From NCBI RefSeq assembly GCF_048403405.1, contig NZ_CP183129.1: a stretch of 64,000 nt of DNA, one strand, 5' to 3'. Every line of letters begins with the position of its first letter. Position 1 is the first letter of the stretch. Position numbers and translations under genes: made by a program. This DNA is from Escherichia coli. GTDB taxonomy: Bacteria > Pseudomonadota > Gammaproteobacteria > Enterobacterales > Enterobacteriaceae. The notes beneath the pieces are model-generated. The model did not search any database. It saw nothing but the letters and a program-made list of their open reading frames with translations, and had not been told where the DNA came from. Below, piece by piece: positions 24,523-26,522 of this stretch.

Positions 24523-24711
24523 ATGAATACTAACGTTTTTCGACTGCTCCTGCTGGGAAGCCTGTTCAGCCTTAGCGCCTGTGTGCAGCAAAGCGAAGTG
24601 CGACAGATGAAACACAGCGTCAGCACACTGAACCAGGAGATGACGCAACTCATTGACATCCTCCACGCCCTGAAGGACGTGGATCCCTGCTACGTTCAGG
24701 CTGTCGCCTGA
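24523..24711 (+). pseudogene. yajI: 5' fragment of lipoprotein gene yajI, interrupted by an IS200/IS605-family insertion
   Basis: ATG at 24523, divergent from nrdR; MNTNVFRLLLLGSLFSLSAC is a lipoprotein signal with lipobox; the frame runs into the 3' end of the inserted tnpB and stops at 24711. The exact junction is not resolved. Confidence 0.6.
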
Positions 24712-25904
24712 ATCATTTCGGTGGGTTCCTGCTTCAACGGGCGGCCTGACTGCACCATCCCTCCACAGGCAAGAACGGCGTGCCCCGCCGCTAAAATGTT
24801 ACGAGCGCCATTTACATCGGCGTTCGCTGTATATCCACATACCTGGCATCTGAATTTACTTTGTGACAGGCGATTTTCTTTCGCTGTATGACCACAGCAC
24901 GCGCAACGCTGGCTTGTGTACGCTGGCGGAACAGCAAGCACCTGACCGCCACGCCAGAGCTGCTTGTACTCAAGCTGGCGGCGCATTTCATACCAGCCCT
25001 GATCCAGTATCGAACGGTTTAAACCTGATTTTGCCCGGACATTGCGCCCCGGCTGGCTGACCGTACCCGCTGCTGACTTTGACATGTTACTGACCTTCAA
25101 ATCCTCAATGACTATCATTGCGTGGTTTTTGCTGACGGTCGTTGTGACTTTGTGAAGGTAGTCCCTGCGGATATTTGCGATACAGGAATGCAGTCGCTGT
25201 ATTTTGCGTTTCTGCTTCTGCCAGTTGTTGCTGAATTTGACCTTGCGGCTTAACTGTCGCTGAAGTCTCGCCAGCGTCTTCTGGTTTTTCTGAAAACTGT
25301 TTACAGGCTCAAAGACTGTGCCATCTGACAGCGTGGCGAGTTTAGCCACGCCAGCATCCAGCCCGACCATTGATGCTGAAGGGTGAACCGGAGTTGATAC
25401 TTCACTTTCTGTCTGAATACTGATGTACCACTTACCGCAGGACTGGCTGACAGTGACATTTTTCACAACACCCGTGACCTGACGGCTATTCCGGTAGCGC
25501 ATCCAGCCAAGTTTCGGCAGAAAAATACGGCTGTTTTCCTGATCGAGCTTAACGCCCTGCGGGTAGCGGAATGCATCATTCTGTCCCCGCTTTTTGAATC
25601 GGGGAAAAGCAGCCCGCTTCTGGAAGAAGTTTTTGTAAGCCCGCTCAAGGTCTTTCAGTGACTGTTGCAATGGCTGTGACGGGGCATCTTTAAGCCATTG
25701 CGTTTCAGTGGCATTTTTCCACTCAACCAGCCAGGAAGCCATTTTCCCGTAAGGGATGTATTTATTACCGGCCTCATGATTCTCATTCTGAAGCGCCAGA
25801 GCACGATTGAAAACGAAACGACATGCGCCTGCGAAGCGCCTCATTTCACGCTCCTGTTGACCACCGGGTCTTAACTGGAATTTAAATGCCTGTAGTCGTT
25901 TCAC
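24696..25904 (-). CDS. tnpB: TnpB (OrfB) RNA-guided endonuclease of an IS200/IS605 element (402 aa)
   Basis: GTG start at 25904; N-terminus [35 protein letters not shown]; C-terminal RuvC-like region with zinc finger CACCGHT...[18 protein letters not shown]. Confidence 0.9.
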
Positions 25905-25911
25905 AGGCCAA

Positions 25912-26439
25912 ATGATACTTTGGTCTGTGAAAAAAGAAACCGATATCCGGCGTGGAAGGCATTGTGTTTTCCTGATGCATGTTCACCTGGTCTTTGTCAC
26001 CAAATACCGACGTCAGATTTTTGACCATGACGCGACAGAAAAACTACGCACTTACTTTTCAAAGGTATGTGCTGATTTTGAAGCTGAACTGGTTGAAATG
26101 GATGGCGAACCAGATCACGTCAATTTGTTAATTAACTATCCTCCCAAACTGGCGATATCCAGTCTGGTAAACAGCCTCAAAGGCGTATCGGGTAGGTTAC
26201 TGCGACGAGATCGACCAGATATTGCCGTCAGGTATTACTACAAAGGCGTTTTGTGGAGTCCTGGCTATTTTGCCAGTAGCTGCGGAGGTGCGCCAATATC
26301 CGTCATCCGCCAATACATTGAACAACAGCAAACACCTGGTCAGGTGGAAAACCGCGCCTTATATCCCCGCCCTGAAGGACGGGGTTTTACGGCGCACCGG
26401 ATAAAGAAACAGTCAAAATCACTCAGCAAAACAGGCTGA
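25912..26439 (+). CDS. tnpA: TnpA Y1 (HUH) transposase of an IS200/IS605 element (up to 175 aa; the native C-terminus may be shorter)
   Basis: ATG at 25912; HCVFLMHVHLVFVTKYRRQIF first strand, conserved GGAPISVIRQYIEQQQ catalytic-Tyr region; the HUH position reads DHVNLL (His-Val-Asn). Confidence 0.85.
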   Translation: MILWSVKKETDIRRGRHCVFLMHVHLVFVTKYRRQIFDHDATEKLRTYFSKVCADFEAELVEMDGEPDHVNLLINYPPKLAISSLVNSLKGVSGRLLRRDRPDIAVRYYYKGVLWSPGYFASSCGGAPISVIRQYIEQQQTPGQVENRALYPRPEGRGFTAHRIKKQSKSLSKTG

Positions 26440-26522
26440 ATGCAAAATCCAGCAGTGGGGTTTACCTTCTGCCTGGAGCGAAAACACCAGCAAGACTGGA
26501 AAGCCAGATCGGTACTTTACGT

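Follow-up and report, generated by a model that had tools for sequence, protein, structure and literature searches.

Members of the IS200/IS605 family differ in the arrangement of their two genes, tnpA and tnpB being divergent in IS605 of H. pylori and co-directional in IS608, the mechanistic model of the family and likewise from H. pylori. In IS608 the target tetranucleotide TTAC lies 19 nt 5' of the foot of the left subterminal hairpin (IP_L), the guide tetranucleotide G_L is AAAG, TCAA lies 10 nt 3' of the foot of the right hairpin (IP_R), and the histidines of the HUH motif of such transposases bind an essential metal ion (PMC3201880). The last ~16 nt of the reRNA of ISDra2 (Deinococcus radiodurans), whose TnpB is the reference OMEGA nuclease, derive from flanking DNA (PMC8612924), and the sotRNA and HgcC families are RNAs encoded at tnpB 3' ends (PMC4615843). 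IS609 is the ISfinder name of an element found, for example, in E. coli O157:H7 and at the K-12 insP/insQ locus; it belongs to the same family as IS605 but is a different element. A 1748-bp IS609 with the flanks CTCA/ATAA was listed in 2019 as residing in yajI of the ST38 strain 28Eco12 (PMC6963479).

The DNA analysed here is a 64,000-nt stretch from Escherichia coli (the window), in which the original prediction had placed an IS200/IS605-family element within the lipoprotein gene yajI, between nrdR and tsx. The order at the locus is nrdR, an ORF with a lipoprotein signal starting at 24523, tnpB, the divergent tnpA, the in-frame remainder of yajI, which extends to 26810, and tsx (Table 1). Alignment with K-12 yajI (540 bp, 179 aa) across the junction bears the prediction out, since nt 1-130 correspond to 24523-24652 and nt 131-540 to 26401-26810, identifying the two flanking ORFs as the 5' and 3' parts of the gene. 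The block between nt 130 and 131 is exactly 1748 bp, the length calculated beforehand from a 179-aa YajI, and the frame offset between the fragments arises because 1748 mod 3 is 2. The proposed extent, 24640-26500, was thus right in location but slightly overshot both ends, which lie at 24653 and 26400. Target DNA was neither duplicated nor lost at the junction (exact against the K-12 and Ecol_316 yajI genes), and removing the element in silico restores a 179-aa YajI identical to the intact E. coli allele WP_001314529.1. The interrupted gene is reduced to 43 codons with the signal peptide and a 3' part that is out of frame, and is therefore a null allele. The whole window was searched for further copies of yajI and of IS609, but neither was found, and both candidates were rejected; an assembly artefact was likewise rejected, identical junctions being present in 340 independent complete genomes.

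Table 1. Features of the yajI::IS609 locus (window coordinates).
Feature	Coordinates	Strand	Basis or remarks
nrdR	23923-24372	-	Gene order around the locus
yajI 5' fragment	24523-24652	+	130 nt, 43 codons + 1 nt; lipoprotein signal peptide and lipobox Cys
Predicted 16-nt omega-RNA guide	24637-24652	-	5'-UGAGUUGCGUCAUCUC-3', from yajI DNA abutting the right end
Complete IS609, 1748 bp	24653-26400	-	Contiguous K-12 yajI; copies at other loci; PMC6963479
Predicted omega-RNA (reRNA) scaffold	24653-24802	-	Overlaps the tnpB 3' end and the right end
IP_R imperfect palindrome	24662-24683	-	(T)CCACGTCC-TTCA-GGGCGTGG(A); right cleavage 10 nt from its foot
tnpB (insQ-type)	24696-25904	-	402 aa, starts with GTG; 7-bp gap to the divergent tnpA ATG
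tnpA ORF	25912-26439	+	175 aa; Y1 core complete
IP_L imperfect palindrome	26365-26384	-	CCCCGTCC-TTCA-GGGCGGGG, T.G mismatch; 16 nt from the cleavage point
Target/left cleavage site and predicted TAM, 5'-TTAT-3'	26401-26404	-	ATAA on the window + strand; directly 5' of the left end
yajI 3' fragment	26401-26810	+	410 nt; second base of codon 44 to codon 179 and stop

Judged by its sequence, the inserted block is an ordinary complete IS609. Copies at four other chromosomal loci, in unrelated sequence surroundings, align with it over its full length (1-1748). Its identity to copies designated IS609 in RefSeq is 98-99% over all 1748 bp, and these share with it the arrangement of the genes, the ends, the TTAT target and the terminal TCAA; for the O157:H7 element, annotated as 'IS609 family transposase', the identity is 98.7% over 1748 bp. 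The active (top) strand of the element is the minus strand of the window, with the left end at 26400 (5'-CCGGTGCGCC...) and the right end at 24653 (...GGATGTCAA-3'). Its layout is IS605-like (left end, outward tnpA, 7-bp gap, tnpB, right end), the divergent genes distinguishing it from IS608. The insertion itself is already known, having been published in 2019 for the same site. As a whole, we have high confidence in reading the locus as yajI::IS609 with a TnpA that is likely crippled and an intact TnpB and predicted omega-RNA region.

Of 5426 complete E. coli genomes, 340 (about 6%) carry the insertion; an independent 64-mer search found the site uninterrupted in 4991 and interrupted in 340. 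Empty yajI alleles of the K-12 type carry TGAT where the window has TTAT, the target being present because of a yajI polymorphism, Q45K, and a TTAT-bearing empty site was found in 28 records.

Comparison of five independent IS609 sites (yajI, yedK, ydcL/ydcO, TetR/ytfB and yeaR/yeaQ) showed that at 5/5 the left end is preceded directly by TTAT and the element terminates in TCAA, the latter located at 24653-24656 in the window. IS609 lacks terminal inverted repeats and carries subterminal imperfect palindromes at both ends, which have in common the loop TTCA and a T.G mismatch and fold as DNA with z-scores of -3.1 (IP_L) and -2.8 (IP_R). This layout resembles that of IS608, both elements being cleaved on the left within the flank, 16-19 nt 5' of the foot of IP_L; however, IS608 combines the target TTAC with the G_L sequence AAAG, whereas the window copy combines TTAT with a presumed G_L of AAAA. 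By analogy, the AAAA at 26385-26388, 5' of the IP_L foot and in the position of the IS608 guide tetranucleotide, fits position-wise pairing with TTAT as AAAG does with TTAC. TTAT is likewise predicted, from the insertion site, to be the TAM of IS609 TnpB, compared with TTGAT for ISDra2. The GC skew of the window + strand (-0.03) and a gene order reversed with respect to the K-12 right replichore place the top strand of IS609 on the lagging-strand template.

Profile searches substantiated the proposed pairing of a divergent Y1 TnpA with a 402-aa TnpB. The tnpA product matches the IS200/IS605 Y1 transposase profile NF033573 with 143 bits (cut-off 55) and Pfam Y1_Tnp with E = 3.4e-40, and TnpB matches NF040570 with 388 bits (cut-off 100) and shows the Pfam architecture HTH_OrfB_IS605, OrfB_IS605 and Cas12f1-like TNB. 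When aligned to the TnpA structures of IS608, ISDra2 and Sulfolobus, the window TnpA retains the catalytic Tyr135 (26314-26316) and His69, equivalent to Y127 and H64 of IS608 TnpA (alignment E about 3e-19). Its HUH motif, however, reads H69-V70-N71, with the Asn codon AAT at 26122-26124, while all seven other IS609 copies examined have HVH, and an exact 62-mer carrying AAT recovers this H71N variant in only 9 of 5001 records. In addition, codon 144 is CAG (26341-26343) where the O157:H7 copy has a TAG stop after codon 143, and the frame continues for 32 more codons through the left end to a stop in yajI DNA (26437-26439). In a genome that shows no difference from the window across the 2521 bp compared (24380-26900), tnpA bears a pseudogene label in RefSeq. 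With asparagine in place of the second metal-binding histidine and the reference stop lost, the TnpA of the window copy is likely crippled, which probably leaves this copy non-autonomous and in effect fixed.

Some HUH endonucleases naturally have HUQ, and the H71N replacement may leave TnpA activity intact. The C-terminal extension may also be tolerated, because most IS609 copies, including 5 of 6 other full-length copies compared, lack the O157:H7 TAG stop. Accepting both would make the window copy fully autonomous and active now, its H-V-N TnpA still excising and inserting the element despite the 32-residue extension. Such an element would agree with the presence of Tyr135, His69 and the entire Y1 fold, with the occurrence of IS609 at several loci although the stop is mostly missing, and with the 28 records bearing an empty TTAT site, which could include excision products. 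We nevertheless consider present-day autonomy quite unlikely, given that the residue replaced is a histidine of the metal-binding pair (PMC3201880), that the variant is so rare and that the gene is flagged as a pseudogene. Moreover, the TTAT-bearing empty-site genomes that were checked are not recent excisants of the window lineage, because they diverge from the window flanks by 0.5-1.3%.

In genomes that match the window fully over 24380-26900, we also observed IS609 at a second place, which could provide TnpA in trans.

Unlike tnpA, tnpB appears intact. Alignment to D191/E278/D361 of ISDra2 TnpB (PDB 8bf8/8exa) assigns the RuvC triad to D183, E267 and D363, and the zinc-binding cysteines C334, C337, C353 and C356 are present, in agreement with the RuvC-like residues and zinc finger recognized earlier. 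The window protein aligns with ISDra2 TnpB over residues 3-376 (E = 1e-54) with conservation of the triad and of both CxxC pairs, and differs in having 15 additional residues behind the catalytic Glu. The gene is open at full length in 7/7 copies compared, and the window copy has no unique amino-acid change. Since copies differ by roughly as many synonymous as nonsynonymous changes in tnpB, constraint on the gene is only moderate. Moderate constraint, together with the inactivating tnpA changes (internal stops) seen in several IS609 copies, could suggest an inert fossil, whose TnpA and TnpB/omega-RNA are absent or inactive and whose sole effect is the yajI null mutation. We regard a fossil as rather improbable, in view of the open reading frames, the retained catalytic residues and the conserved sequence blocks of the predicted omega-RNA. 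IS609 TnpB has, furthermore, been purified for functional testing with eight orthologues (PMC12781874); this purification among nine orthologues was the one mention in our literature search, which found no functional study of IS609 TnpB or insQ. Decay of tnpA with tnpB kept also prompts the thought that TnpB has been domesticated as a nuclease-dead, RNA-guided (TldR-like) regulator and is no longer part of a transposon. Nothing specific speaks for domestication, the triad and zinc finger are intact, the transposon retains its two ends and is found at several loci, and we reject it as extremely improbable.

The preferred reading, an insertion with a probably crippled TnpA and an intact TnpB and predicted omega-RNA region, draws further on the right end of the element. 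As in ISDra2, a structured RNA-like region extends over the tnpB 3' end and the right end, and the adjoining flank could supply the guide. Rfam searches gave matches to HgcC (E = 0.0099), sot0042 and RAGATH-18, all on the minus strand, below the gathering threshold and taken as a pointer to an omega-RNA region, not as family membership; the HgcC match extends to 24640, past the right end, and those to sot0042 and RAGATH-18 end before it (24662 and 24726, respectively). A conserved block begins at CCUGUGGAG (24769), and the blocks are kept in loci with TnpB identities as low as 43%, ending at GGAGGATGTCAA, exactly at the right end of the element. For nine sequences, with a structure specified by hand from those same sequences and limited to well-aligned helices, 92% of cells are paired, four pairs are compensatory, and none of 500 shuffles reaches the covariation score. 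RNAalifold on a plain MAFFT alignment gave a poor consensus, with distant sequences mis-aligned and the central hairpin shifting between subgroups; this hairpin, TTCAGGC/GCCTGAA in the window, lies outside the column scoring. The IP_R stem also shows compensatory changes among relatives, but conservation of the right-end stem alone is no proof of an RNA role, because the stem is a DNA signal for TnpA as well. By analogy with the ISDra2 reRNA, the guide of the putative omega-RNA is predicted to be UGAGUUGCGUCAUCUC.

These features allow a mechanism to be proposed, modelled on TnpB/reRNA function (PMC8612924; preprint of Meers et al., 10.1101/2023.03.14.532601). IS609 entered yajI by single-strand 'peel-and-paste' transposition 3' of TTAT. 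If expressed, TnpB with an omega-RNA ending in the guide UGAGUUGCGUCAUCUC would cut the vacant site, 5'-TTAT followed directly by TGAGTTGCGTCATCTC, as carried by an intact Lys45 yajI that has been restored or newly brought in, and cleavage would favour re-copying of IS609 through homologous repair, the established 'homing' role of TnpB. The occupied locus would be spared because TCAA, not TTAT, precedes the guide match, and K-12-type yajI (TGAT) would be a target for neither insertion nor cleavage. One extension of this scheme is that IS609 in this sublineage is transposition-dead but nuclease-competent, with the intact Lys45 yajI (TTAT plus TGAGTTGCGTCATCTC), an allele that circulates in E. 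coli (the 28 records), as its sole target, and thus acts as a small allele-specific gene drive or exclusion device. This is a speculative proposal, to which we give little credence; if true, TnpB would prevent recombination with incoming DNA from restoring yajI, and the Q45K polymorphism would set which lineages are open to insertion and cleavage.

In practice, the locus should be annotated yajI::IS609, a yajI null allele; it can serve as a lineage marker and has little import beyond annotation. The site is also a clean natural case in which one SNP creates or abolishes the insertion target and, with it, the presumed TAM. Lastly, tnpA decays through different lesions in different IS609 copies while tnpB stays open, in line with the prevailing view that TnpB/omega-RNA persists longer than the transposase.

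The window carries a copy of IS609, an IS200/IS605-family element, inside the lipoprotein gene yajI. With the K-12 region as BLAST query, K-12 yajI nucleotides 1-130 aligned to window 24523-24652 and nucleotides 131-540 to 26401-26810, and because K-12 yajI is contiguous across this junction, the two abutting alignments delimit an inserted block at 24653-26400 of exactly 1748 bp, the length that the original prediction had proposed for an insertion between two yajI-derived fragments. As it also held, this length accounts for the frame shift between the fragments (1748 mod 3 = 2), which match profile positions 1-45 and 85-179 of the YajI equivalog PRK11530. 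The expected gene order (nrdR, a signal-peptide ORF, two divergent genes, an in-frame tail and tsx) is present in the ORF list and the sequence, and yajI is indeed intact in K-12 MG1655, which has the order tsx-yajI-nrdR with an uninterrupted yajI of 540 bp. Neither a second yajI nor a second copy of the element was found elsewhere within the window. These data show that IS609 entered yajI 3' of TTAT, leaving the target unaltered and disrupting yajI; the feature is real and its initial interpretation is correct.

Coordinates of the yajI::IS609 locus and of comparison tnpA genes (window positions unless a locus is named)
Feature	Position	Strand	Basis or remark
nrdR	23923-24372	-	ORF list and raw sequence
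yajI 5' ORF with lipoprotein signal peptide (MNTNVFRLLLLGSLFSLSAC...)	start 24523		ORF list and raw sequence
IS609 right end	24653		last four bases TCAA; junction line-up
tnpB ORF, 402 aa	24696-25904	-	ORF list and raw sequence
tnpA ORF, 175 aa, divergent	25912-26439	+	ATG 7 bp from tnpB GTG
IS609 left end	26400		top strand = window minus; junction line-up
Target / left cleavage tetranucleotide TTAT	26401-26404		junction line-up
yajI 3' ORF	end 26810		followed by tsx
tnpA with TGA at codon 96, yajI copy of strain ST2747	L002:3033-3560		
tnpA with TGA at codon 96, comparison loci L004 and L005	464-889	-	

Further along, the tsx-yajD spacer (window 27993-28029) measures 37 bp, versus 176 bp in K-12 and Ecol_316, and the REP-like content of the additional ~138 bp in the latter two (GCCGGATGCGGCG ... 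GCGCATCAGGC) identifies this as a REP/BIME presence/absence polymorphism.

The genes had been predicted to encode a Y1 transposase TnpA and a TnpB, and profile searches agree. For the 175-aa product, NF033573 'IS200/IS605 family transposase' gives 143 bits, above its cut-off of 55, and Pfam Y1_Tnp is hit at E = 3e-40. For the 402-aa product, NCBIfam NF040570 'RNA-guided endonuclease TnpB family' gives 388 bits, above its cut-off of 100, and the Pfam architecture is HTH_OrfB_IS605, OrfB_IS605 and Cas12f1-like TNB. Megablast of 24380-26900 located the same yajI insertion in 340 of 5426 complete E. coli genomes (at least 80% of the query in one place), five of them at 100% identity, and RefSeq labels these loci 'DUF3251/SadB-YajI (partial)', 'RNA-guided endonuclease InsQ/TnpB' and 'tnpA IS200/IS605(-like element IS609)'. 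The 1748-bp block alone is found in 4858 genomes, aligned over 1-1748 at 98-99% identity and including several other loci. Judged by this identity and by its shared ends and target rule, the element is a member of IS609. A yajI IS609 insertion with the 1748 bp and flanking tetranucleotides of the window has been published (PMC6963479), so that this specific insertion, carried by about 6% of complete E. coli genomes, is an already known feature; only the H71N change in this sublineage and the SNP-dependent target lack prior annotation, and both are minor.

The junctions were lined up with copies at four other loci (yedK, ydcL/ydcO, a TetR-family gene adjoining ytfB, and yeaR/yeaQ). Read in tnpB orientation, all copies start with CCGGTGCGCC... 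directly after 5'-(T/C)TTAT and finish with ...GGAGGATGTCAA, beyond which the sequences are unrelated, a pattern that identifies the window minus strand as the IS609 top strand. Single-strand DNA folding yielded a left-end hairpin, CCCCGTCC-TTCA-GGGCGGGG, 16 nt inside the end, and a right-end hairpin, CCACGTCC-TTCA-GGGCGTGG, whose foot lies 10 nt in from the end, the two having an identical loop and an identical T.G mismatch. This layout is that of IS608, in which TTAC lies 19 nt 5' of the foot of the left-end imperfect palindrome (IP_L), TCAA lies 10 nt 3' of the foot of its right-end counterpart (IP_R), and a guide tetranucleotide, AAAG for TTAC, precedes each hairpin foot (PMC3201880). The four bases 5' of IP_L in the window are AAAA, which by analogy would pair position by position with TTAT, the target C-to-T change relative to IS608 being matched by a G-to-A change in the guide. 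In mechanism, the TnpA and the ends of the element are IS608-like, and its TnpB and predicted omega-RNA are ISDra2-like. In an Acidovorax plasmid relative with 58% identity (L020:231-300), the left-end flank terminates in the ISDra2-type target TTGAT and the hairpin is preceded by bases other than those in the window IS609, suggesting that target and guide tetranucleotides co-vary across the clade.

The K-12 empty site, ...CTCA/ATCAAG..., reads TTGAT on the element top strand, versus TTTAT in the window (...CTCA/IS/ATAAAG...). The target TTAT is created by a nonsynonymous polymorphism in yajI codon 45 (window 26401-26403), which is AAA (Lys) in the window and CAA (Gln) in K-12. A search with a 64-mer of the reconstructed empty site found 4991 genomes uninterrupted and 340 with the right-hand 40 nt only, independently reproducing the latter count. 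Exact matches (intact yajI, TTTAT/Lys45) occurred in only 28 of the 4991 uninterrupted records, a count that misses Lys45 alleles with another difference inside the 64-mer; the remaining listed full-length matches are all at 98.4%, one mismatch, as in K-12, a figure that alone does not tell which base differs per record, and lower-ranked records go down to 96.9%. In silico removal of the IS restores a YajI identical over 179/179 residues to WP_001314529.1, the intact protein of three fetched records among the 28, with Q45K as the SNP relative to K-12. The 6-kb flanks of these three records share 98.7-99.5% identity with the window (K-12: 97.5-97.8%), consistent with the Lys45/TTAT allele being ancestral in one part of the species and the insertion having happened within it.

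In TnpA, Tyr135 and His69 align with IS608 Y127 and H64, and the position of H66 is occupied by Asn71 (AAT, 26122-26124); all seven other copies compared have H-V-H. The HUH histidines bind the essential metal ion (PMC3201880). An exact 62-mer around AAT occurs in only nine of 5001 records carrying the region, seven of which also rank with the best matches to the yajI insertion in the window. The O157:H7 IS609 TnpA (WP_000604943.1) is 143 aa long; where its gene has the TAG stop, the window and five of six other full-length copies (L004-L009, tnpA stop compared) have CAG, so that the window ORF runs 32 codons on, through the left-end hairpin, to a stop at 26437-26439 in yajI DNA. In a genome that matches the window at every base of 24380-26900, tnpA carries a pseudogene annotation in RefSeq. 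The window TnpA is thus probably impaired; two points count against certainty, namely that HUQ variants occur in other HUH enzymes and that the C-terminal extension is common among copies. Separately, IS609 copies at yajI, yedK and ydcO have in common a tnpA frame cut short by TGA at codon 96 (26198, where the window has TTA), implying either that a copy already bearing the mutation was mobilized in trans or that gene conversion took place between copies. Only 7 bp (window 25902-25914) separate the tnpB GTG (25904, -) from the tnpA ATG (25912, +), so each gene must have its promoter and ribosome-binding site within the coding sequence of the other.

TnpB aligns to ISDra2 TnpB (PDB 8bf8/8ex9/8exa, 8h1j) over residues 3-376 (E = 1e-54). 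Its predicted RuvC-like residues and zinc finger are borne out, with D183, E267 and D363 falling on ISDra2 D191, E278 and D361, and both CxxC pairs kept (C334/C337, C353/C356). Cleavage by ISDra2 TnpB needs D191 (PMC8612924). Among seven IS609 copies, the tnpB frame is open at 402 codons in all and no amino-acid change is unique to the window TnpB.

An Rfam scan returned three sub-threshold matches on the minus strand within 24640-24823, namely HgcC (E = 0.0099), whose alignment crosses the right end into the flank, and sot0042 and RAGATH-18, which end before reaching it, at 24662 and 24726; HgcC and the sotRNAs are RNAs at tnpB 3' ends described before their function was known (PMC4615843). 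The tnpB 3' regions of plasmid TnpB homologues (94% to 43% protein identity) have in common the blocks CCTGTGGAG...GAAGCAGGAACC and GGAATCC...GGAGGATGTCAA, and their similarity ends entirely at TCAA. In a 20-pair structure, hand-specified and drawn from the same nine sequences that were scored, 92% of cells pair and four pairs show compensatory changes (e.g., A-U in place of G-C in the RAGATH-18-like stem, and A-U or G-C in place of C-G in the terminal stem, which doubles as the DNA hairpin for TnpA); its covariation score was matched by 0 of 500 shuffles, and slid controls gave 45-58% pairing. By analogy with the ISDra2 RNA of about 150 nt, the last ~16 nt of which derive from the flank (PMC8612924), the predicted guide is UGAGUUGCGUCAUCUC, 24652 down to 24637. 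Three Klebsiella and Enterobacter plasmid relatives with 81-86% TnpB identity (L014, L015, L016; 645-700) wholly lack tnpA, and their left-end hairpin lies some 55 nt upstream of tnpB; they are tnpA-less LE-tnpB-RE derivatives. In two of the three (L015, L016), genes for a Phd/YefM-type antitoxin and a Y-family polymerase follow closely downstream of the right end, and the flank again terminates in TTAT.

By the family mechanism, the top strand would have transposed in single-stranded form while on the lagging-strand template (PMC3201880, PMC8612924). The window gene order is reversed versus the K-12 right replichore and the + strand GC skew is -0.03, making the window minus strand, and hence the IS top strand, the lagging-strand template, and the orientation of the IS agrees with such transposition. 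With TnpA presumably weakened or dead, this copy would be effectively fixed unless mobilized in trans. If expressed, TnpB with its omega-RNA would cleave only the vacant site TTAT + TGAGTTGCGTCATCTC, sparing the occupied site, since there the guide match follows TCAA instead of TTAT, and would thereby bias repair toward retention of the element. K-12-type alleles (TGAT) should be refractory to insertion and cleavage alike.
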